Assembly: GCF_044647545.1 (NCBI RefSeq)
Contig: NZ_CP172818.1
Direction: 5' to 3' (one strand)
From: Escherichia coli
Lineage (GTDB): Bacteria; Pseudomonadota; Gammaproteobacteria; Enterobacterales; Enterobacteriaceae
Length of the DNA: 64,000 nucleotides
Under the pieces are notes generated by a model. That model was not told the origin of the DNA. It did no database searches and saw only the letters and a program-made list of their open reading frames with translations. The position numbers and the translations under genes are program-made. This document shows positions 1 through 11,787 of the stretch, piece after piece (positions within the stretch are counted from its first letter, which is position 1; each line of letters opens with the position of its first letter).

Positions 1-325
1 AAAAATTTTCTTCCTGCATCAAGAAAAATATTATCTTACAATTTGGGCCAAATAAATTTAGAAATCGTGACAAGGCAAATGAATTAATTAGAATCTTAAT
101 TTCACAAAACAAAATATTTATATCTTCATGGGGTAAAACAAAAATAATAAACATAACTCATTGTGTTTTTTGATTTTAATGACAATCTAAAAGGACTTAA
201 TTTAAGAGTAAAAACAAACTCTAAACCCAGTTCGGATAAAAGCTTGTCATCTTGATAGGTAATATATAGGTACATAGACACATCAGAACGATCACTTACT
301 CCAATATCATTGGCCAGGATACTAT

Positions 326-952
326 ATGACATACGATAGTGAATTCGGATCACATGTATCCCTATATCGGGATAGAATCAAACAGGTTATTGATGACTCC
401 CTAAACGAACATCTTAACTCAATGATTCTACGTGTTGATCTGCATGACCCAATTGATACAGAAAATATGGATAACCCATTCTTTCAACCCAGGGTTGACT
501 CTGGTGCTATATCTCGCTTTACCAGTGCGTTAAAAGCAAAGCTTAAACATGATAAGCATATTAAAACTCAACGGAAAGACTGGCCTGATAGTCGACATTC
601 CACTTTACGTTACGCATGGGTCAGAGAATATACCAAAAATAGAAAGCGGCATTACCATTTGATACTGTGTTTCAATCAGGATGCTTATTATCATTTAGGT
701 GATTACGACTTAAACCGTAACACGTTACGTACAATGATAACGACAGCTTGGTACAGTGCACTTGGCATCCCTATAGATAGCTCGGGGAAGTTAGTTAATT
801 ACCCGCCAAATGGCAAATACCTTCTCAATCGTAAAAGGGACAACTTTGAGCAGACTTATAGCGATTTGATGAATAGGGTGGATTACATGACCAAAGTAAG
901 GACTAAAATAGTCGGTGACGGAGACCGTAATTTCGGCTGCAGTCGCGGGTAA
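326..952 (+). CDS. yfjJ: YagK/YfjJ-family prophage protein (inovirus Gp2-like), 208 aa
   Basis: Intact 208-aa ORF; ATG at 326 with AGGA 6 nt upstream; recognised as the YfjJ/YagK family from the protein sequence; lies in the prophage-like island. Confidence 0.6.
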   Translation: MTYDSEFGSHVSLYRDRIKQVIDDSLNEHLNSMILRVDLHDPIDTENMDNPFFQPRVDSGAISRFTSALKAKLKHDKHIKTQRKDWPDSRHSTLRYAWVREYTKNRKRHYHLILCFNQDAYYHLGDYDLNRNTLRTMITTAWYSALGIPIDSSGKLVNYPPNGKYLLNRKRDNFEQTYSDLMNRVDYMTKVRTKIVGDGDRNFGCSRG

Positions 953-970
953 TTTATTTTTTACAACAAT

Positions 971-1007
971 GGCCTTTCTTATGGCTGGAAAGGCCTGATT
1001 TGTTTGT
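971..1007 (+). terminator. Stem-loop plus T-tract after yfjJ
   Basis: GGCCTTTC...GAAAGGCC stem followed by TGATTTGTTTG, directly 3' of the yfjJ stop. Confidence 0.5.
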
Positions 1008-1129
1008 ATTAAGATATCGGTAATCTTTTGATGGTTGGAAGCCCGTCCTGGTAGACGACCTAGCCTACCGAAGATGTGAGTTATTCAAAAATGTCGCTTT
1101 CCCGCGTTCCGTAGACAAACGTACCTAAA

Positions 1130-3319
1130 TCAATGTCGTCTAATACCGAGCGCGCGCCTGATAAACATCTGATCAACGTACCCAATCGATCTACTCCAAA
1201 TGTCCTGAGTATCCCGAAGATACTGGCTCAACTCATCCACATCAGCCTCGTCGGAAAATTCCAGCAAGTCTACCAGTCGGTGTAACGTCTGAATGGGAAT
1301 GCCAATCTCTTCTAAGGCATTGACACCTGGTGGTAGATGGAAACTTTCGAACGCCAATTTGACATGTGTGTAATCGACTTTGCTGCGTATACCACGCTTT
1401 ACAGCGTGGTGTTTAACTACATCCTCCATCAAGCTGAGCACCTTAGGTAGGGTATAGCCGAAGGTATTGGTTATGAGCTTCAAATCATTGTTGAGGGCAA
1501 TGGAAAGAGTACGTTTCTCCCCTTCAGAAATCCACTGTCGTGCATAATCGATCTGATTTTTCAGATATTCCGAATAACTTTCAGCACTTAAATAGCCGGC
1601 AAGTTTTGCGATCATGACATCCGTAGGCTTAACAGGGACCCCATTGCGACTGAACGTATGGGGAACCAGTCTGGCAATGATCTTTGCAAAGGTCTTGAGG
1701 AAGTTTGTCGCGGGAGTCCAGTGAAACACTAACGAGGAAAATTCGTTATCGTCCATCATCTCGAACATGCTTTGCAGCATTTCGAACTGCTCGACACGGA
1801 AGTACGAATGCTTCTTCACAAGGTCGATGGAAACACGGTCGTTTATGAAAACCTCATCAAAGCGATCCTGTGAAAACTCGGACAAGTGGTCTGGTTGAAC
1901 GCTGGCTAACAGGTTGATTGGGGTATCAATGCCCTGAATACCGAGCGGAATATCCACCTCTTGATTGAGATTGTCTTCCGGGATTTCCTCCAGGCAAAAG
2001 ATTTTGCCGACGAAGTGAACGCCCATGCGCCCGGCGCGACCTTTGATGTTCCCATGGGTGAATTTGTCAATGCTGCGAGTTCCATCGCGGTTGTCGTAGA
2101 TCACAACGTTCTTAGCGATAGTGTTGACTCCTTCAATGATCGTGGAGGTGCAGAGCAAAAAGCGCAGTTTTCCAGCATTGAATTGGTCGGCAGTGTATTG
2201 CTGCAGTGCCCTCGGTAGCGCGCCAAAATGCAAGCCAATACCGTTTCTAAGGGCGACTGTGTAATCCCAGTCGGCATCGAACTCTTCGCTGACCCAGTCG
2301 ACATGGGGATTCTCAGTCGGAGTGCCATGCCCAAGCCTGATCAGCTCGCGCGCCACCAGGCCCGCAACAGTTGGTGACTTGCAATAAATGATCGTTGCGT
2401 CGACACATGCGTGCGCGATTTCCCCCAGCGCTTTGAGCTTGGCTTTGTCGTCATTCGCTTTGATGCCGAACGTCTTAACATCTAGCGCGACTGTATTGAA
2501 GTCGGTAGAAACGAAAGTATGCGGATATCCAAGTTTTTCGAGACCGCGAATGCTGTTAACGAACGGTCCCGTCAGGTAAAACTGCCTGGAGACCTTAAGC
2601 AGTTTGCTTAACGCAATGTTGAGCTCGATGACTCGTTCGTCTTGATGATCAATGTCCCCGCTTTTCAGTTGTCGGAACGCCAACTTGTAAAACTCGTCAA
2701 TGACGAAGAGGTCAATGTCGACGATGTCGTCACGCTCGTTCACTCGCTCCTGAGTTAACACATAAACAGCCTGATCGGAATGGCACACTTGGGAACTGTG
2801 GTGGATGATCTGATATCGGTCACCGAATCGCTCTTGCAGTCGGCGACGGGTTTCGTCGGCAAGAGCCACGGTTGGAACAACCAGAACAAGCCGTTTCAAA
2901 GTTCCCATGCCGAGCAATGAATCGACGATTGCACTTTTGCCCATGCTTGTAGGTGCACTCAGCACCACGTTTTGACCAGACTTGAGCAGATCGAATATGT
3001 GGAACTGCATTGAGTGGAAAACATAACCATCCGAGAATGGCGTCCGGTATAGCTCAAGCACCCTCAGGTCATCCGGTGTCAGGCTGGTGAACTCCTTTTT
3101 GAGATACGGGAACAAACCTGATTTTCTCACCATATTTTTCAAAATTGTGGTGTGCTCGGAAAACCGCTCGCGCGAATCGAGAGCTCGCACGATCAAGTCC
3201 CGTCCCAAGTCATACGAAACAGGGTTAGACAACAGCTTGTTAACCGCAAACAGATAATTGAACGATGAGAAGTCCTCACCCTGCAGGCTATGTTTCGCCT
3301 GTTCATAGATCTCTGTCAT
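1130..3319 (-). CDS. yfjK: SF2 DEAD/DEAH-box helicase, 729 aa (probable AbpB)
   Basis: 729-aa ORF; Walker A APTSMGKS, DExx-like VIDEF, helicase C-terminal motifs TSTIIEGVN and GRAGRMG visible in the translation; overlaps upstream yfjL by 4 bp. Confidence 0.85.
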   Translation of the reverse strand: MTEIYEQAKHSLQGEDFSSFNYLFAVNKLLSNPVSYDLGRDLIVRALDSRERFSEHTTILKNMVRKSGLFPYLKKEFTSLTPDDLRVLELYRTPFSDGYVFHSMQFHIFDLLKSGQNVVLSAPTSMGKSAIVDSLLGMGTLKRLVLVVPTVALADETRRRLQERFGDRYQIIHHSSQVCHSDQAVYVLTQERVNERDDIVDIDLFVIDEFYKLAFRQLKSGDIDHQDERVIELNIALSKLLKVSRQFYLTGPFVNSIRGLEKLGYPHTFVSTDFNTVALDVKTFGIKANDDKAKLKALGEIAHACVDATIIYCKSPTVAGLVARELIRLGHGTPTENPHVDWVSEEFDADWDYTVALRNGIGLHFGALPRALQQYTADQFNAGKLRFLLCTSTIIEGVNTIAKNVVIYDNRDGTRSIDKFTHGNIKGRAGRMGVHFVGKIFCLEEIPEDNLNQEVDIPLGIQGIDTPINLLASVQPDHLSEFSQDRFDEVFINDRVSIDLVKKHSYFRVEQFEMLQSMFEMMDDNEFSSLVFHWTPATNFLKTFAKIIARLVPHTFSRNGVPVKPTDVMIAKLAGYLSAESYSEYLKNQIDYARQWISEGEKRTLSIALNNDLKLITNTFGYTLPKVLSLMEDVVKHHAVKRGIRSKVDYTHVKLAFESFHLPPGVNALEEIGIPIQTLHRLVDLLEFSDEADVDELSQYLRDTQDIWSRSIGYVDQMFIRRALGIRRH

Positions 3320-4932
3320 ACGACCTCTCTCACCTTCTCATCAACTAATTGGGTTAACCGCTCAAGACTCGGGGCTGGATAAATGAATACGTGGATGCAA
3401 AGATTCGCAAACGGCGAATCCTCGATGAGGTCAGCCGCGAATTTTTCGAACAGCACCGCTGTTTCTTTCTCCAGGTCATCCTCGAACCCCGGCGTTTCAG
3501 GCTCGGTTAGTAGATTAGAGTCGTAGCCCACGAACAGAACAAACGTGAAACGATCGAGGTGAGCATCGAAAGGTTGGCTGCCATCAAGAATTTCGTCAAT
3601 GTCGTGGCGAAGCAGGTAGTTATCGTCTTTAATGTCGAGGATTTTTTTGCGCGCGGTATCGATGCAATCCGAAATGTCCTCGTACAACTGATCCCGTATC
3701 TCCGGCAATCTGACGGCAATGTTAATATCAGTCACCAACTCGCTGAAGCCAATCCAAAGCTGATCACCTTCTGGATCGCGGCGAACGATATGCACGTTTT
3801 CAAGAATTTTTTCGGCCCCTGCTTTTTCCACGTATAGCATGCAAGGAATAGGCTGGCTTTCGTGGTGCTGCCGGATCGTTGCGTGCAACAGCACTCGACC
3901 CAAAAATTCGCTGACGTCATGGAGCGATTTGAAGACGGAATTCTTTAGTCGTTCTCGCTTTTCAATGAATGTCAGTTTATGAATATCAGACATTTCTTTT
4001 GGTCGGAGAAAAACCTCATCCAACCATTGACAGACGTTATCCGCGATGTGCTTGTAGCGGTATTTCTTAAGTGAGTACTGCTGATGTAGAACCTGGCCTT
4101 TACGCTTAGCGCAGACCGAAGCCATAGGCGCTCTAAATGGCGTAAGGATGTGGGGTAAGTCCCGTTTGACGTAGATTTTGCGGCCTGACCGAGATTGGTC
4201 ATCTTCGACACGCTGCTTGAACCACTCAAGTAGGTCTGGTCGTAAGTAGGACTTGTCATCAGCACTGTGAATGCGTCGAGAATGCTCGCCCTTGCGCGTC
4301 ACAGTATCAAGGATGCGGCACCAAATGTCTTCGGCGACGGTTTCGGAACTGAGAATGACCCCATGTAGATCTTGGGAGGCCAGCCGTATGTTCTTGATCC
4401 CTAGAAGTTCCAGTTCGCGCAGGGATGAAAACACTTCCCATGTAGCCGCATCGATCCAATCTGAAACGCTTATACCTGAGTCTGTTAAAAAATTGTCTGT
4501 GCGTTTGTTGAGGTCATCGATGAGTTCCTGTCGACCTGGCTTATCTAGTCGGGCGTTTGGGCTGATCGTCAAGTACTCAAGGGTTTTGTTGACCTTTTCC
4601 TCTGTGACGATGGAGTACCTACGTCCAAGGGACAGGTCAGACTCACACTGCATTGATTTGTGCAAAATTGAACTGCAGGGGATCGTCTTTTTATCAGCAC
4701 CTTTTGAATTCTGAACGATGTCCGAAATGTTCCAACGTGTTTTGCCGGTGCTTTTTACCTGAACGAAGTCGATGTATCCATCAGATACAATGTCGATATC
4801 GTCTGTGACCTCGCAGCGCACACTGCGGATAGTCTTGTCACGAAGCATTCGGGTGACATGGTAAGCGGCTACGCAGTCCTGAAATAAGAAACCGTGCTTG
4901 GCGGCTACTCCGCCTGAATCGTTCGACTCCAT
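3316..4932 (-). CDS. yfjL: Helicase-partner protein, 538 aa (probable AbpA)
   Basis: 538-aa ORF whose stop overlaps the yfjK start (3316-3319), indicating translational coupling; length and sequence match my recollection of YfjL. Confidence 0.8.
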   Translation of the reverse strand: MESNDSGGVAAKHGFLFQDCVAAYHVTRMLRDKTIRSVRCEVTDDIDIVSDGYIDFVQVKSTGKTRWNISDIVQNSKGADKKTIPCSSILHKSMQCESDLSLGRRYSIVTEEKVNKTLEYLTISPNARLDKPGRQELIDDLNKRTDNFLTDSGISVSDWIDAATWEVFSSLRELELLGIKNIRLASQDLHGVILSSETVAEDIWCRILDTVTRKGEHSRRIHSADDKSYLRPDLLEWFKQRVEDDQSRSGRKIYVKRDLPHILTPFRAPMASVCAKRKGQVLHQQYSLKKYRYKHIADNVCQWLDEVFLRPKEMSDIHKLTFIEKRERLKNSVFKSLHDVSEFLGRVLLHATIRQHHESQPIPCMLYVEKAGAEKILENVHIVRRDPEGDQLWIGFSELVTDINIAVRLPEIRDQLYEDISDCIDTARKKILDIKDDNYLLRHDIDEILDGSQPFDAHLDRFTFVLFVGYDSNLLTEPETPGFEDDLEKETAVLFEKFAADLIEDSPFANLCIHVFIYPAPSLERLTQLVDEKVREVV

Positions 4933-5190
4933 TTAGACATCCGTGACAATTTTGCGAAAATTAAGGAGATGTTATGACACAGTCCAATCGGATCACTGCA
5001 TCATCACCAGTGATCTAAATACTTCACAGCCATTCTCGGTCGCAGGTATCAAGCTTTTCAGGATTCCACAAATATTGTAACCCTGACGTCTAATTTGGTT
5101 ATATAACATACTGCCCCAACTAACGTAAGGTAGGCACAGCCTTAATCAAGGTTTTGGTTTTCAAATAGTTCAGAGCTGAGACCGCCAACC

Positions 5191-5238
5191 GCACTATGGC
5201 ACTATGGCACTATGGCACTATGGCACTATGGCACTATG
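5191..5238. repeat. Tandem repeat (GCACTATG) x6
   Basis: Six perfect head-to-tail copies of an 8-bp unit read directly, between yfjM and the yfjL upstream region. Confidence 0.95.
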
Positions 5239-5291
5239 GCACCGCCAGCGATTGTAATCACACTTGATATTATAAAACACAGTTGCACGCA

Positions 5292-5555
5292 TTATTTCCT
5301 GGTTGGTAGGGTCATATCTCGATGCTCTTTGAGCAATGTCAACATCGCGTGTTCATGGCTTTCTATATTGTTGATGCCTTGCCCATCCGGACCCCACTCC
5401 TTATAGCTCATCATGATGGCTTGTTTTGGGCTCTCTGCTCGTTCTGTTTCGACGTAGAATTTTTTCTTGTCTGCTGGCGAATAATTACTAAGTATCGAGT
5501 TGCTGCTTGGTGAGATCAGGAAGAGGTTACCGAAACGATGGACATCATCCCCCAT
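5292..5555 (-). CDS. yfjM: Small prophage protein, 87 aa
   Basis: 87-aa ORF in the expected position between yfjL and rnlA; length matches YfjM; coding status not independently supported. Confidence 0.5.
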
Positions 5556-5696
5556 TTTGTGGACTGCCCCCCCGGTAGACGATCCTGCCCTATAGTTGGA
5601 GTGCCCCCTATTCAGGTGGCTAAATTTAGCAAATCAATACACTTCAGGGGGGTATTATTGTAGAGTTTCCCCATATGTTTCTATGGGATCCAGGAA

Positions 5697-6770
5697 ATGA
5701 CAATCAGGAGTTACAAAAACTTAAATCTGGTCAGGGCAAATATCGAGACTGAATCCAGACAATTCATTGAAAATAAAAACTATTCAATCCAATCAATTGG
5801 TCCTATGCCAGGGTCAAGGGCTGGGCTTCGGGTCGTATTTACCAGACCAGGGGTTAACTTGGCAACTGTGGACATTTTTTATAACGGGGACGGTTCGACT
5901 ACAATTCAATATCTCACTGGAGCCAATCGTTCTCTGGGCCAAGAGTTAGCGGATCATCTTTTTGAAACCATCAATCCTGCTGAATTTGAGCAGGTAAATA
6001 TGGTACTGCAAGGATTTGTAGAGACAAGCGTTCTACCTGTACTTGAGCTATCAGCAGATGAATCGCATATAGAGTTCAGAGAACACTCTCGTAACGCTCA
6101 TACCGTAGTGTGGAAAATTATTTCCACCAGCTATCAGGACGAATTGACTGTGAGCCTGCATATCACAACAGGTAAGCTCCAGATTCAGGGCCGACCGCTG
6201 TCATGTTACAGAGTTTTCACGTTTAACTTGGCAGCCCTGCTTGATTTACAGGGTTTGGAGAAAGTGCTAATCCGCCAGGAGGATGGTAAAGCTAATATTG
6301 TTCAACAGGAGGTTGCCCGCACTTACTTGCAGACTGTAATGGCCGATGCTTACCCGCATCTCCACGTGACTGCCGAAAAATTGCTCGTTTCAGGGCTATG
6401 TGTTAAACTCGCCGCCCCTGATTTGCCTGACTACTGTATGTTACTTTATCCTGAACTACGCACCATTGAAGGTGTCTTAAAAAGTAAGATGAGTGGGTTA
6501 GGCATGCCAGTACAGCAGCCGGCAGGTTTTGGAACTTACTTTGATAAACCTGCTGCTCATTACATTCTGAAACCGCAATTTGCAGCTACTCTTAGACCGG
6601 AACAGATTAACATCATCAGCACAGCCTATACTTTTTTTAATGTGGAACGTCATTCTCTGTTCCACATGGAAACTGTGGTCGATGCCAGCCGTATGATTTC
6701 TGATATGGCCCGGTTGATGGGTAAAGCCACTAGAGCGTGGGGAATAATCAAGGACTTATATATTGTTTGA
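5697..6770 (+). CDS. rnlA: RnlA toxin (RNase LS), 357 aa
   Basis: 357-aa ORF recognised as RnlA; followed by an overlapping small antitoxin gene. Confidence 0.9.
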   Translation: MTIRSYKNLNLVRANIETESRQFIENKNYSIQSIGPMPGSRAGLRVVFTRPGVNLATVDIFYNGDGSTTIQYLTGANRSLGQELADHLFETINPAEFEQVNMVLQGFVETSVLPVLELSADESHIEFREHSRNAHTVVWKIISTSYQDELTVSLHITTGKLQIQGRPLSCYRVFTFNLAALLDLQGLEKVLIRQEDGKANIVQQEVARTYLQTVMADAYPHLHVTAEKLLVSGLCVKLAAPDLPDYCMLLYPELRTIEGVLKSKMSGLGMPVQQPAGFGTYFDKPAAHYILKPQFAATLRPEQINIISTAYTFFNVERHSLFHMETVVDASRMISDMARLMGKATRAWGIIKDLYIV

Positions 6771-7134
6771 AATCACCGGAATTAACGTCTCAGGGGCTCT
6801 AAAAGCTGTCGTTATGGCGACCGGCTTCGAGAACCCTTTGTCCTCAGTTAATGAAATTGAGACGAAACTTTCTGCCCTACTGGGTAGTGAGACCACTGGT
6901 GAAATCCTTTTTGACCTCTTGTGCGCTAACGGTCCAGAGTGGAACCGCTTCGTTACGCTGGAAATGAAATATGGCCGGATCATGCTGGATACGGCCAAAA
7001 TTATTGATGAGCAGGACGTTCCGACACATATCCTGAGCAAACTGACTTTTACTTTACGTAATCATCCTGAGTACCTAGAAGCCTCTGTTTTGTCTCCCGA
7101 TGATGTACGCCAAGTCCTGTCAATGGATTTTTGA
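6763..7134 (+). CDS. rnlB: RnlB antitoxin, 123 aa
   Basis: 123-aa ORF overlapping the rnlA 3' end by 8 bp, the typical type II toxin-antitoxin arrangement. Confidence 0.85.
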   Translation: MFEITGINVSGALKAVVMATGFENPLSSVNEIETKLSALLGSETTGEILFDLLCANGPEWNRFVTLEMKYGRIMLDTAKIIDEQDVPTHILSKLTFTLRNHPEYLEASVLSPDDVRQVLSMDF

Positions 7135-7435
7135 AACTCTTCTTTCTAAACGAACCAGTATAGAATTCGCCCTTTTGGCATGATATTAACTTGTCCAATA
7201 TGATCAAATAGCATTAACCCCCCCTCACAACGTCCTGCATAGGGAACACGTTTTCCCCTGTGCACCCACGACTAAATTTCCCCCCCTTTAAACTTCTCAA
7301 TAATGTCACCAATTTTCTGGAAATCCTATGATGCCTTTCCCGGTAAATGGTGCTGTGAGTTCAGAAAGATTCTGCAATCTATGTGCATTGAAAAAATCTT
7401 CAGATAGATATCATTCTCCTGAACAATCCGATGAA

Positions 7436-7470
7436 CGGCAGAACCTCGCGGTTCTGCCGTTTTTGTTTTA
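7436..7470 (+). terminator. Terminator-like hairpin in the yfjP leader
   Basis: CGGCAGAAC...GTTCTGCCG stem followed by TTTTTGTTTTA, about 20 nt upstream of the yfjP RBS; a diverged copy recurs at 15269-15300. Confidence 0.5.
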
Positions 7471-7488
7471 CTTTTCAGAGGAGTGGTG

Positions 7489-8352
7489 ATGAAAAATTTT
7501 GAAGTTCTGCAGCCACTACAGAACTCCCTTTCCGGTCTACCGCTATGGGTATCTGAACGTATATTGCAGCAGATAAATCAGTTAACCCACTACGAGCCAG
7601 TGATCGGCATCATGGGTAAAACTGGGGCGGGAAAGAGTAGCCTTTGCAATGCCCTGTTTGCCGGTGAAGTATCGCCGGTCAGCGATGTAGCGGCCTGTAC
7701 ACGTGATCCTTTACGCTTTCGCCTGCAGATTGGAGAACACTTTATGACCATCGTGGATCTGCCCGGCGTGGGCGAAAGTGGCGTTCGCGATACCGAGTAT
7801 GCTGCGCTGTACCGCGAACAACTTCCCCGGCTCGACCTGATTCTGTGGCTGATTAAGGCTGATGATCGGGCACTGGCGACTGATGAGCATTTTTACCGTC
7901 AGGTGATTGGCGAAGCATACCGGCATAAGATGCTGTTTGTTATCAGCCAGTCAGACAAAGCTGAACCCACCAGCGGTGGAAATATCCTTTCCACAGAGCA
8001 GAAACAAAATATCAGCCGCAAAATCTGCCTGCTGCATGAGCTATTCCAGCCCGTGCATCCGGTGTGTGCCGTGTCGGTTCGCCTGCAGTGGGGACTAAGG
8101 GTGATGGCAGAGCGGATGATTAAGTGTCTGCCGCGTGAGGCCAGCAGCCCGGTAGTAGCGCTACTGCAACATCCCTTTCGAACAACGGTAGCCCGGGAGC
8201 AGGCACGTGACGATTTCGGTGAAACCGTAGGTGCCATACTCGATACGGTAAGCACCTTTCCCCTTATTCCCGCCCCGGTGCGGACCATTATTCAGGCCGT
8301 GCGTTCCTCGGTGGTGTCAGTGGCCCGCGCTGTCTGGGATTTCTTCTTCTGA
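7489..8352 (+). CDS. yfjP: Prophage GTPase, 287 aa
   Basis: G1/Walker A GKTGAGKSS and G3 DLPGVG motifs; ATG at 7489 preceded by GAGGAG (the listed ORF begins 6 nt earlier at an in-frame GTG). Confidence 0.85.
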   Translation: MKNFEVLQPLQNSLSGLPLWVSERILQQINQLTHYEPVIGIMGKTGAGKSSLCNALFAGEVSPVSDVAACTRDPLRFRLQIGEHFMTIVDLPGVGESGVRDTEYAALYREQLPRLDLILWLIKADDRALATDEHFYRQVIGEAYRHKMLFVISQSDKAEPTSGGNILSTEQKQNISRKICLLHELFQPVHPVCAVSVRLQWGLRVMAERMIKCLPREASSPVVALLQHPFRTTVAREQARDDFGETVGAILDTVSTFPLIPAPVRTIIQAVRSSVVSVARAVWDFFF

Positions 8353-8443
8353 GTGTTTAATTCTGCCCTATTATTCTCCGAGCCCTGTCGCAAGTGCGGC
8401 AGGGCTTTCTTTATTTGTTTTACCCATACTGAGGAGTCTGCTT

Positions 8444-9263
8444 ATGACCCGTCTGGCTTCGCGCTTTGGCGCTGCAAACCAGATACGCCGTGACCGTCCG
8501 CTGACACATGAAGAACTGATACGCCATGTACCCAGTATTTTTGGGGAAGACCGGCACATCCCGCAGTGAACGGTATGCGTACATTCCCACCATTACCGTC
8601 CTGGAAAATCTGCAGCGGGAAGGCTTTCAGCCGTTCTTCGCCTGCCAGACCCGTGTGCGCGACCCGGGCCGCCGGGGATACACAAAACACATGCTGCGTC
8701 TGCGGCGGGCCGGAGAGATAAACGGAGAACATGTCCCTGAAATTATTCTGCTCAACTCTCATGACGGTACCTCCAGCTACCAGATGCTGCCGGGTTACTT
8801 CAGGTTCGTCTGCCAGAACGGGTGCGTCTGTGGCCAGTCTCTGGGGGAAGTGCGTGTTCCACACCGGGGAAATGTAGTGGAGAAAGTTATCGAAGGGGCT
8901 TACGAGGTGGTGGGCGTGTTTGACCGGATAGAGGAGAAGCGTGATGCCATGCAGTCGCTGGTCCTGCCGCCACCGGCACGCCAGGCGCTGGCACAGGCGG
9001 CACTGACTTACCGTTATGGTGACGAACATCAGCCCGTCACCACCGCCGACATTCTGACGCCGCGACGCCGGGAGGATTACGGTAAGGACCTGTGGAGCGC
9101 ATATCAGACCATCCAGGAGAATATGCTGAAAGGCGGGATTTCCGGTCGCAGTGCCAGAGGAAAACGTATCCATACCCGGGCCATTCACAGCATTGATACC
9201 GACATTAAGCTCAATCGCGCATTGTGGGTGATGGCAGAAACACTGCTCACGCAACTGCAGTAG
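8444..9263 (+). pseudogene. yfjQ: DUF932-family protein, frameshifted near codon 41
   Basis: ATG at 8444 with GAGGAG RBS encodes MTRLASRFGAAN... for 41 codons, then TGA at 8567-8569; the remaining 245 aa continues in the +1 frame; total span 820 nt is not a multiple of 3. Confidence 0.65.
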
Positions 9264-9479
9264 ACGTTTCATGTTGCCACGTTGTTAATATCGGACACCA
9301 CCTGTCCGCATCGCTATGTGCTCGTGTGCCTCAATCCCCCGGTTATAGCTTTTAACCCCCGTTACATCTGGCTTTTGCAGAAATAAAAAATAGTTTCTGC
9401 GTTGTCCATACCCTGTCCGCCCCCCTCTTTAAAGTAATCACATCATTTTCAGTCAGTTAACTTTCCTGGAGAATCTCTC

Positions 9480-10181
9480 ATGACACAGGCAGAACGCCGC
9501 CATGACCGGCTGGCTGTCAGGCTGTCACTGATAATCAGCCGTCTGGTTGCGGGTGAAACGTTGAGCGTGCGCAAACTGGCGGCTGAGTTTGGCGTGTCAG
9601 TGCGCACGCTGCGGCGTGATTTTCGTGAACGACTGATGTATCTGGACCTGGAGTATCAGTCCGGATACTGCCGCTTACGCACTGCTGGCAGTGAGATGCA
9701 GATGGTGCCCGACGTGCTTATCTTTGCCCACCGCAGCGGGCTGGCCGGGCTTTTTCCCGGCCTTGACCGCCGTCTGGTGAATGCACTGCTGATGTGCGAT
9801 GAGTCTCCCTGCGTGATAGCACCAGCCAATCCGGTTCCTTCGCCTTCAGGAGCATTGTCTTTCTGGAGACTGATTCAGGCCATTACCGGGCGCAGGCGGG
9901 TGACGCTGATTGCAGAGGGGCGACGCTGTGAGCGCCTAGCTCCCTGCCGGTTACTCATCCACCAGCAGACCTGGTATCTGGTGGCTGAACACGAAGGGCA
10001 TATCGCCGTATTCACACTTGATGAAATCCATCTGATTCAGCCTTTGCAGGAGACTTTTCGCCGCAATGACAGTCTGTGTCGCCTGGTTGAAGACCCGGTC
10101 TTCATTCAGGCCTTACCCCATTTTCGCTTTATCCAGCATTCACTGCTTACGTTTGTTCCGGCCGACAGCCCACCGGAATAG
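9480..10181 (+). CDS. yfjR: HTH plus WYL-domain transcriptional regulator, 233 aa
   Basis: N-terminal HTH-like segment ([21 protein letters not shown]) and a WYL motif ([11 protein letters not shown]) visible in the translation. Confidence 0.85.
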
Positions 10182-10221
10182 CGCAGGCGTTGTTATCAAC
10201 CCGGCAACATGGAGGAGCCCA

Positions 10222-10458
10222 GTGCCCGTTATTGCCATTATCGCCATTGTTATCATCGTCATCATTCTGAACAAAACCGGAGTGTCCGACAGCCTCACGG
10301 CCCTGACACTTGCAACCGTTGCCGCACTACTGACGGGAGGTGGTGCAGCCGGTGCTGCCAGTGTCGCGCTGACGCCGTTCGTCGGCGTGCCGGTGGGTAT
10401 TTTTGTGGGAATTTATGTCTTTGCCAAAGTGGTTCGTCTGATTTCAGGGAAAAAATAA
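10222..10458 (+). CDS. ypjK: Small hydrophobic membrane protein, about 78 aa
   Basis: GTG start at 10222 preceded by GGAGGA; two hydrophobic segments; stop overlaps the yfjS start (TAATG). Confidence 0.55.
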   Translation: MPVIAIIAIVIIVIILNKTGVSDSLTALTLATVAALLTGGGAAGAASVALTPFVGVPVGIFVGIYVFAKVVRLISGKK

Positions 10459-10901
10459 TGAAACGTAAAACACTACCTCTGCTGGCGCTGGTTGCCACCT
10501 CTCTGTTTCTGAGCGCCTGCGATGACAGGAGTGATGACCTCAAAGCTATCAGTAAATTTAAGGACCTCACGCCCCCGCGCTTCAGCGATGTGGTCAGCCG
10601 TCAGGATGATGTCAGCGAAGAATGGTCACAGGTTGGCTTCTCATCCGGTCTCACCCTGCAGGTCTTACGTACCCGTGAGTCGCCCGATGGTTGCGAGGGT
10701 GGCAGTTACTACTATCTGGTAGATATGGAGGAGAAAACCGTCCAGCCGCTGATGAATGCGCTTTGTATTGCCGACAATATCAAACTGGAATACCACGAAG
10801 TTACGGACCCGTATACGAAAGAAAAATACTTCGAATATTCCCATGACGGCAAACTGATGGGACGGCTGCTGATACCGTCAAACCCTGATAACCGGGAATA
10901 A
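10458..10901 (+). CDS. yfjS: Lipoprotein, 147 aa
   Basis: Signal peptide with lipobox LSAC; ATG at 10458; the longer listed ORF from 10209 is an upstream extension in the same frame. Confidence 0.8.
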   Translation: MKRKTLPLLALVATSLFLSACDDRSDDLKAISKFKDLTPPRFSDVVSRQDDVSEEWSQVGFSSGLTLQVLRTRESPDGCEGGSYYYLVDMEEKTVQPLMNALCIADNIKLEYHEVTDPYTKEKYFEYSHDGKLMGRLLIPSNPDNRE

Positions 10902-10924
10902 AAACAACGAGAAAGGAGACATAA

Positions 10925-11392
10925 ATGAAAATACGTTCACTAAGCCGGTTTGTACTGGCAAGTACAATGTTCGCCAGCTTTACAGCCTCTGCGGTCCCCG
11001 GACTCTGGCAACAGGGGTACGGTCAGGGCAATGCGGAATACAGTGTGACGGATGCCAGCGGAAAGATGTTTACCATCAACTGCACGGGAAATCCGGACCA
11101 GAACGGTATTTACCAGCACTCGGTTTTTCTGATCCTCGCCGGGGATAAAACGGTCAGCTCGCATGATGACAGTACCGGCATCACAGTGGTGATGGACCAT
11201 AAGCAATATGCCATTCCCTCAACCCTTGGCTGGCGTAACGGAGATAATGCCTGGTTCAGCTTCATCATGGATATCCGTAAGGCCCGGCAGTTCGACGTCT
11301 ACGTCAATGACCAGAAAGTTGGATCGTTTAACCCTGATGTTCGGAATGCACAAAAGGTCCTGCCAACATTAGCGGACTGCACTAACGACTGA
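10925..11392 (+). CDS. yfjT: Secreted/periplasmic protein, 155 aa
   Basis: Intact ORF with N-terminal signal peptide; RBS GGAGA upstream. Confidence 0.8.
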   Translation: MKIRSLSRFVLASTMFASFTASAVPGLWQQGYGQGNAEYSVTDASGKMFTINCTGNPDQNGIYQHSVFLILAGDKTVSSHDDSTGITVVMDHKQYAIPSTLGWRNGDNAWFSFIMDIRKARQFDVYVNDQKVGSFNPDVRNAQKVLPTLADCTND

Positions 11393-11787
11393 CGGCTGCG
11401 CCTTCCCTACCATAACAACCCTGATTGCCTCCGGCGGTCGGGGGTTTCTTTTTTCTCCTTAATCTCCAGAGGTAGGCCACGTACTTTCGAACGATGAGCG
11501 CAGTGGTCAGTTTTTTTCAGATATATTTATCTTTTTTTGGCTGTAAGCTCCGCTGTGAGCGCAGGCTGTGTGAAAACTCCTGATCACTTCTTGGTCTAAG
11601 CGATGGTTTCATATGATCAACCATTCTTGATAAACCCATGCGACGAACTGACTTTTTCATTAAAATTAGAAATATACGAATGAATACTGCGGATACCGAC
11701 ATGGCCAATCACATTCAAGGACAAGGCAGGCACCAGGTGACATTACTCCCTGATGCACTGGATGATTTTGTCACTGAAGATAACTTA

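Follow-up and report, generated by a model that had tools for sequence, protein, structure and literature searches.

An 8-bp tandem repeat upstream of abpA in Escherichia coli K-12 lies within the relic of an IS3-family element and is probably a neutral VNTR

Intergenic VNTRs that arise by slipped-strand mispairing are used for the MLVA typing of E. coli. Among the contingency loci of Haemophilus and Neisseria, hif carries TA repeats between the −35 and −10 elements and nadA a TAAA tract upstream of the promoter. The array described here, which consists of GCACTATG units in front of the abpA gene of E. coli K-12, has features of both. As in MLVA-type VNTRs, its copies are perfect and stand head to tail between identical flanks, and its length changes by whole units among relatives as well as among laboratory lineages; as in slippage VNTRs, it can be traced to a short proto-repeat (GTGC..GTGC) in a single-copy ancestor. 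It differs from the MLVA loci in that, of 5426 complete E. coli genomes, none outside the K-12 lineage has it, which makes it of little use for species-wide typing, and in that it is located inside an IS relic, its origin being reconstructable step by step. With the contingency loci it shares a unit length not divisible by 3, a mutable copy number and a position upstream of an abortive-infection-type defence gene. Unlike these, it lies outside a −35/−10 pair, outside the open reading frames of the gene strand and away from known regulator sites, and it comprises just six 8-bp units, which are stable in about 99% of the assemblies.

The array and its neighbours

The window, by which we mean the whole 64-kb stretch of DNA analysed, is the E. 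coli K-12 island CP4-57. In it, Tandem Repeats Finder (TRF) places the GCACTATG array at 5191..5242 with a period of 8, 6.5 copies, 100% matches, no indels and a score of 104. Direct reading of these 52 bp gives six full GCACTATG units (5191-5238) followed by a partial one, GCAC (5239-5242), in agreement with the perfect sixfold 8-bp repeat noticed in an earlier sequence-only reading of the same DNA. On the minus strand, which is the coding strand of both flanking genes, yfjL and yfjM, the unit reads CATAGTGC. The position given in that reading was also correct: 259 bp separate the edge of the array from the ATG of abpA (yfjL), downstream of it at 4932 (minus strand), and the array starts 49 bp downstream of the stop codon of yfjM (5292-5294). 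A pattern of 3 units with up to 2 mismatches matched only the array in the 64-kb window and nothing in 100 dinucleotide-preserving shuffles; an array of six copies cannot have arisen by chance.

Downstream, the array is followed first by abpA (yfjL; 3316..4932, minus strand, RefSeq annotation), which encodes a HamA-type nuclease (PADLOC HamA1, E = 2.8e-266). It overlaps by 4 nt with abpB (yfjK; 1130..3319, minus strand), encoding a HamB-type DEAD/DEAH helicase (PADLOC HamB1, E = 4.2e-220). The downstream operon thus has the adjacent HamA (DUF1837) and HamB helicase genes by which a Hachiman system is recognized; AbpAB is regarded by its authors as related to classical Hachiman but not equivalent to it (PMC10732053). 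On the other side of the array lies yfjM (5292..5555, minus strand), which the alignment of its C-terminus to the full-length gene identifies as the 87 C-terminal codons of a 641-aa GmrSD-family (DUF262/DUF1524) gene. In K-12 the GmrSD homology breaks at window 5560, adjoining rnlAB, of which rnlA is found at 5697-6770 on the plus strand in the gene list of the window.

Several properties that could have given the unit a function of its own were considered. An Rfam search of the array region at a permissive threshold yielded no family, the only match being a meaningless one to a miRNA (E = 0.25). Folded as single-stranded DNA, the array has less structure than shuffled controls (z = +1.7), which makes instability driven by hairpins, or a structured RNA, unlikely. 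Inspection of the unit led us to reject a sigma-54 motif (the GC at the −12 position is absent), an NF-I-like TGGCA motif and methylation sites for Dam or Dcm (neither GATC nor CCWGG is present).

Some other features of the window may be recorded here. A segment at 8250-9350, which comprises the 3′ end of yfjP and yfjQ (DUF932), is only 79.8% identical to MG1655 and all other K-12 genomes, the rest of window 1-11500 differing from MG1655 at about 5 positions. Its best match among the 5426 E. coli genomes is to strain BS-04 (97.1%), and the segment looks as if it had been acquired by allele replacement or gene conversion. At 57650-58149 TRF finds a tandem array with a period of 140 bp (3.6 copies, 96% matches), the unit of which resembles a tRNA gene plus spacer; this is probably a tRNA gene cluster. 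At 18864-18927 there is an imperfect repeat, GGATCCGGAGTCGGGTCTGGTTTC, with a period of 12/24 bp (2.3-4.5 copies, 78-84% matches, TRF).

Homology to ISEc16 and the alleles of relatives

The array is embedded in about 200 bp (5112..5311, minus strand) that align, on either side of it, to the right end of ISEc16, an element of the IS3 family. Opposite the array, the alignment shows just one unit-like sequence in ISEc16, and the array takes the place of the codons for the conserved ...RWRRHSA... motif at the C-terminus of the transposase. With the array reduced to a single unit, the relic becomes one minus-strand frame, in which 30 of 40 amino acids (75%) are identical to the ISEc16 C-terminus and which, after these last ~40 codons, ends at the same stop codon as in ISEc16 (5144..5142, minus strand). 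The terminal inverted repeat of the relic extends from 5112 to about 5150 (minus strand), starts with TG and matches the right inverted repeat of ISEc16 at about 26 of 39 positions, the inverted repeats of ISEc16 beginning TGATC...GTGGACAC..CTAAG.

With its right inverted repeat, its terminal transposase codons and its stop codon the relic is like ISEc16; it differs in being identical to no IS found, its best matches being copies of the ISEc16 family. At the DNA level the identity to elements annotated as ISEc16 is 80-88%, and for the shared inverted repeat and terminal codons about 80-86%. A query covering 4933-5500 gave, besides the K-12-type loci dealt with below, eight short matches in the 5426 complete E. 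coli genomes, all at 86-88% identity and falling on the ISEc16 transposase gene at its 3′ end. About 160 bp of the ~1.24-kb element have survived; the left end and the catalytic domain are absent, and transposition is for this reason impossible. Judged from what is left of it, the stretch 5112-5311 is a dead IS relic. The IS homology ends at about 5311, where the remnant of the GmrSD gene starts, and the last ~6 codons of yfjM together with its stop codon fall into IS-derived sequence.

The ancestral transposase sequence at this place, GTGC-CATA-GTGC (codons ..R-W-R-C-H-S-A..), is a 4-bp direct repeat with a spacing of 8 bp, a classic seed for slippage.

A search of a plasmid collection with the collapsed relic led to plasmids from Enterobacter asburiae and Citrobacter freundii, the fetched loci of which are identical to each other. 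The order on these plasmids is an intact 641-aa GmrSD-type gene, the relic, abpA and abpB, with an overall identity to K-12 of 93%. The full-length GmrSD-type gene is also present in several chromosomes that encode the plasmid-type AbpA. On one of the plasmids (L016) the intact GmrSD-family gene (DUF262 + DUF1524) is located at 7163-9088. Where the GmrSD-type gene is intact, abpAB forms part of a more extensive island that also encodes a further DUF262 protein, a helicase and a DNA methyltransferase.

In the 12 plasmid-type loci that were read (2 plasmids and 10 chromosomes, with identical AbpA in all) the array has 3.5 or 4.5 units and occurs in three alleles that mix GCACTACG and GCACTATG, namely (GCACTACG)2(GCACTATG)1, (GCACTACG)3(GCACTATG)1 and (GCACTACG)2(GCACTATG)2. 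The index has this protein in 734 blocks, and the analysis covered 10 of the places. In Providencia alcalifaciens (L029), whose AbpA is 90% identical, the same relic with the same junction contains a single diverged unit. The alleles are thus graded, from 1 unit in ISEc16 and Providencia via 3.5/4.5 units in the plasmid type to 6.5-10.5 units in the K-12 type. In the abpA homologues from Aeromonas and Pseudomonas that were examined, the relic is absent, and the flank plus unit pattern found no match in the GTDB set, which has a single genome for each species. Two arrays that fitted the 3-unit pattern, one in Anaerolineae and one in a gammaproteobacterial MAG, have different flanks and were set aside as unrelated and coincidental.

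Between K-12 and the plasmid type, abpA is 96.5% and abpB 90.5% identical. The left part of the relic is 91.1% identical and the right part, the 66 bp upstream of the array, 98.5%. The 179 bp proximal to abpA (4933..5111, minus strand), which take in the 5′ leader and the candidate promoter described below, are 98.9% identical, which is above both coding sequences and suggests either a constrained leader or promoter, or a patch of recent recombination.

The site just upstream of abpA is a recurrent target of IS elements in the relatives: in four loci (L018, L020, L021 and L026) different intact elements, with transposases of the rve or the DDE_Tnp_1 type, interrupt the GmrSD-type gene or the spacer upstream of abpA.

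Copy number in the K-12 lineage

Among the 5426 complete E. coli genomes, the 4933-5500 query has 362 full-length matches, essentially all of them in K-12 derivatives. Units were counted with synthetic 5.5- and 7.5-copy queries, from the identity bands relative to the native 6.5-copy query. Most K-12 derivatives (357 genomes) have 6.5 units; 7.5 units (7 full ones) are present in 3 genomes, NEB 5-alpha, ER2796 and TUM1509, and one genome each has 8.5 units (mip270_04, from manure) and 10.5 units (MB06021, from seawater). Direct inspection of the variant sequences showed arrays of perfect whole units between identical flanks. A scan of metagenomes recovered six contigs, all K-12-like and all with 6.5 units.

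Changes in copy number have also been caught in the laboratory. Anton et al. listed for ER2796 an 8-bp insertion "between yfjL-yfjM", with a footnote that it is absent from the derivative ER3413 (Anton et al., 2015; PMC4444293, S1 Table). The lengths of the two genomes differ by exactly +4 +1 −8 bp, the sum of the known changes, and the difference arose within a few laboratory steps in a dam-deficient background. In a macrophage-evolved clone the change "+GCACTATG intergenic (−258/+102)" was reported (PMC4709186). In a gut evolution study a yfjL/yfjM intergenic mutation of unstated nature became more frequent and passed from mouse to mouse (PMC10340439). A text search of the literature with the single unit returned unrelated primer matches only, and with a string of 2 units nothing.

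Six independent changes can be counted in K-12, all of them gains (four of +1, one of +2 and one of +4), although the pair ER2796/ER3413 could alternatively be read as a loss; contractions were not seen among the 362 K-12-type assemblies. That all are gains could hint at selection or could reflect mutational bias alone.

One might suspect that the copy-number differences are artefacts of assembly or sequencing and that the array is in fact invariant. MB06021 has a 1-bp indel nearby, a typical long-read error, and a number of the variants come from one assembly each. This explanation is nevertheless scarcely credible: the variant arrays differ by perfect whole units with intact flanks, the +8-bp change was called from reads in two independent published studies (PMC4709186, PMC4444293), the −8 bp is accounted for exactly by the lengths of ER2796 and ER3413, and the natural relatives have three distinct alleles. 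The array is mutable and still gains copies in K-12. The prediction that the repeat would be prone to slippage has therefore held in K-12 genomes, in natural relatives and in published laboratory lineages. In the comparison of copy number across E. coli genomes, proposed in the sequence-only reading as a check, the number does vary (6.5, 7.5, 8.5 and 10.5), and one allele is shared by 357 of the 362 assemblies (~99%). Since the sublines of K-12 have been apart for decades, the rate to be deduced from this single prevailing allele would be far below that of true contingency loci.

Promoters, reading frames and the probable neutrality of the array

A candidate promoter of abpAB (yfjLK), TAGACG-18-TGGAAT, lies outside the relic at 5063..5092 (minus strand). 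By genomic SELEX, Shimada et al. found an RpoD peak in the yfjL-yfjM spacer and proposed a constitutive promoter with this sequence (Shimada et al., 2014; PMC3946193); the two hexamers are a sequence prediction, and the position is that of a low-resolution SELEX peak plus the motif. SELEX peaks of minor sigma factors map, after conversion of the coordinates, to about window 5029 and 5095 (PMC5493296). A match for the transcription start of abpA, whether by coordinate or by gene, was not found in the supplementary data of Kim et al. 2012. Promoter scans of the region detected weak sites only and, with the consensus, none at the array.

The array is situated 99-150 bp upstream of the candidate −35 element. 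With 52 bp it exceeds the ~30-bp span of a sigma-70 promoter, and the sequences at its junctions are the same at any copy number. Hence no −35/−10 pair can straddle the array, and only the distance between elements flanking it can be changed. The suggestion of the sequence-only reading that copy number might alter promoter spacing finds no support in this arrangement, and the array does not have the placement of a contingency-locus repeat, at which a change in length alters a reading frame or the spacing between −35 and −10.

What a change in distance could still do is shift, in 8-bp steps of ~0.76 helical turn, the spacing and phase between a regulator or upstream element located beyond the array, on the relic's right part or where yfjM ends, and the core promoter, and thereby tune expression stochastically, in the manner of the nadA TAAA tract. 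The array is indeed upstream of abpA on the path of transcription from yfjM, its copy number varies with all changes in K-12 being gains, the 66 bp upstream of it are highly conserved, and a mutation in the yfjL/yfjM spacer spread in mouse-gut populations (PMC10340439). We nonetheless consider this mode of control quite unlikely. The DNA upstream of the array is the remnant of a transposase gene with no known or predicted regulator site, the distance to the candidate −35 element is large, and one allele prevails in many separately kept K-12 lineages. The one-unit locus of Providencia and the loci with 3-4 units retain the same proximal promoter region, and AbpAB is functional when expressed without the array: a HindIII fragment (pST4-1) that ends at window 5051-5056, and so does not include it, still confers AbpAB defence from pBR322, where a vector promoter may drive the genes (PMC10732053). 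The higher conservation of the proximal 179 bp (98.9%), as compared with the left part of the relic (91.1%), fits a function that resides in these 179 bp and not in the relic. The phase variation of the defence operon envisaged in the sequence-only reading would thus seem to be at odds with the anatomy of the locus as well as with the one allele common to 357 of the 362 assemblies.

The units themselves might act as weak promoters or binding elements. Each unit gives rise, on the abpA strand, to TGcCATAGT, which resembles an extended −10 element, and more units could then mean more entry of RNA polymerase or a longer leader, and graded control. A PWM scan does find GTGATT-17-(TG)CATAGT at the upstream junction of the array, but its score of 6.8 bits is low, on a par with the other weak candidates of the region, and the site is unaffected by copy number. 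The internal units have no −35-like partner (≤3 bits), the consensus scan gives no promoter at the array, the SELEX peak centres are ~100-200 bp off, and the units of the relatives are mostly CGTAGTGC, with a weaker −10-like hexamer. A role of this kind is very unlikely.

A change in reading frame, the other possibility raised, was not borne out either. Within the array, each of the three frames of the minus strand, on which abpA is encoded, contains TAG. No stop codon closes any of the three plus-strand frames across the array, and an ATG is present in each unit, from which one could conclude that the array encodes part of a small protein or shifts its frame. The only open reading frame that crosses the array, plus strand 5212-5406, has an (ALWHYGTM)n repeat and runs antisense to the transposase relic and yfjM. 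The ATG of the last unit stays in frame with it at every copy number, only the N-terminal extension varying; the frame is never switched on or off. A ribosome-binding site is not evident in the sequence, and in Providencia the frame is broken (15 codons). A small protein made or controlled by the array therefore has next to no likelihood.

That the length of the array tunes the expression of AbpAB as a Hachiman-type abortive-infection system, longer alleles being favoured under some conditions, is decidedly unlikely; if true, it would explain why the changes are all gains and why a yfjL/yfjM mutation rose and spread between mice during gut colonisation with transferable prophages present. Taken together, the regulatory readings are unlikely. 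The array is most probably a neutral VNTR made by slippage within a dead IS, and not a regulatory device. This assessment follows from its location in junk DNA that encodes nothing, some 100 bp away from the candidate promoter on its upstream side, where it can alter neither the internal spacing nor the frame of any element. As the mechanism that made it, we infer slippage.

We propose the following origin. An IS3-family element related to ISEc16 would have entered the locus just upstream of abpA, where a GmrSD-type defence gene has its 3′ end, and would then have been deleted except for ~160 bp of its right end. Slipped-strand mispairing between the GTGC direct repeats may have duplicated the 8-bp unit CATAGTGC, and further slippage, adding and removing units, may have led to 3-4 units in the Enterobacter/Citrobacter type and to 6 homogeneous units in K-12, where occasional gains to 7, 8 or 10 units appear to continue.

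If the array is neutral, as is likely, little is at stake biologically. Only if copy number altered AbpAB expression would the array be relevant to the balance of cost and benefit of the defence system; should the tuning be true, this would be a rare enterobacterial defence system under the control of a simple-sequence repeat, made from the debris of an IS. For work with K-12, the array provides a marker in 8-bp steps by which stocks can be distinguished (NEB 5-alpha, ER2796 and TUM1509 by their 7 full units), and calls of "intergenic yfjL/yfjM +8 bp" in resequencing of K-12 should be expected as background rather than as adaptive changes. Beyond this, the locus offers a clean and fully reconstructable case in which a decaying transposase gene with a 4-bp direct repeat gave birth to a microsatellite.
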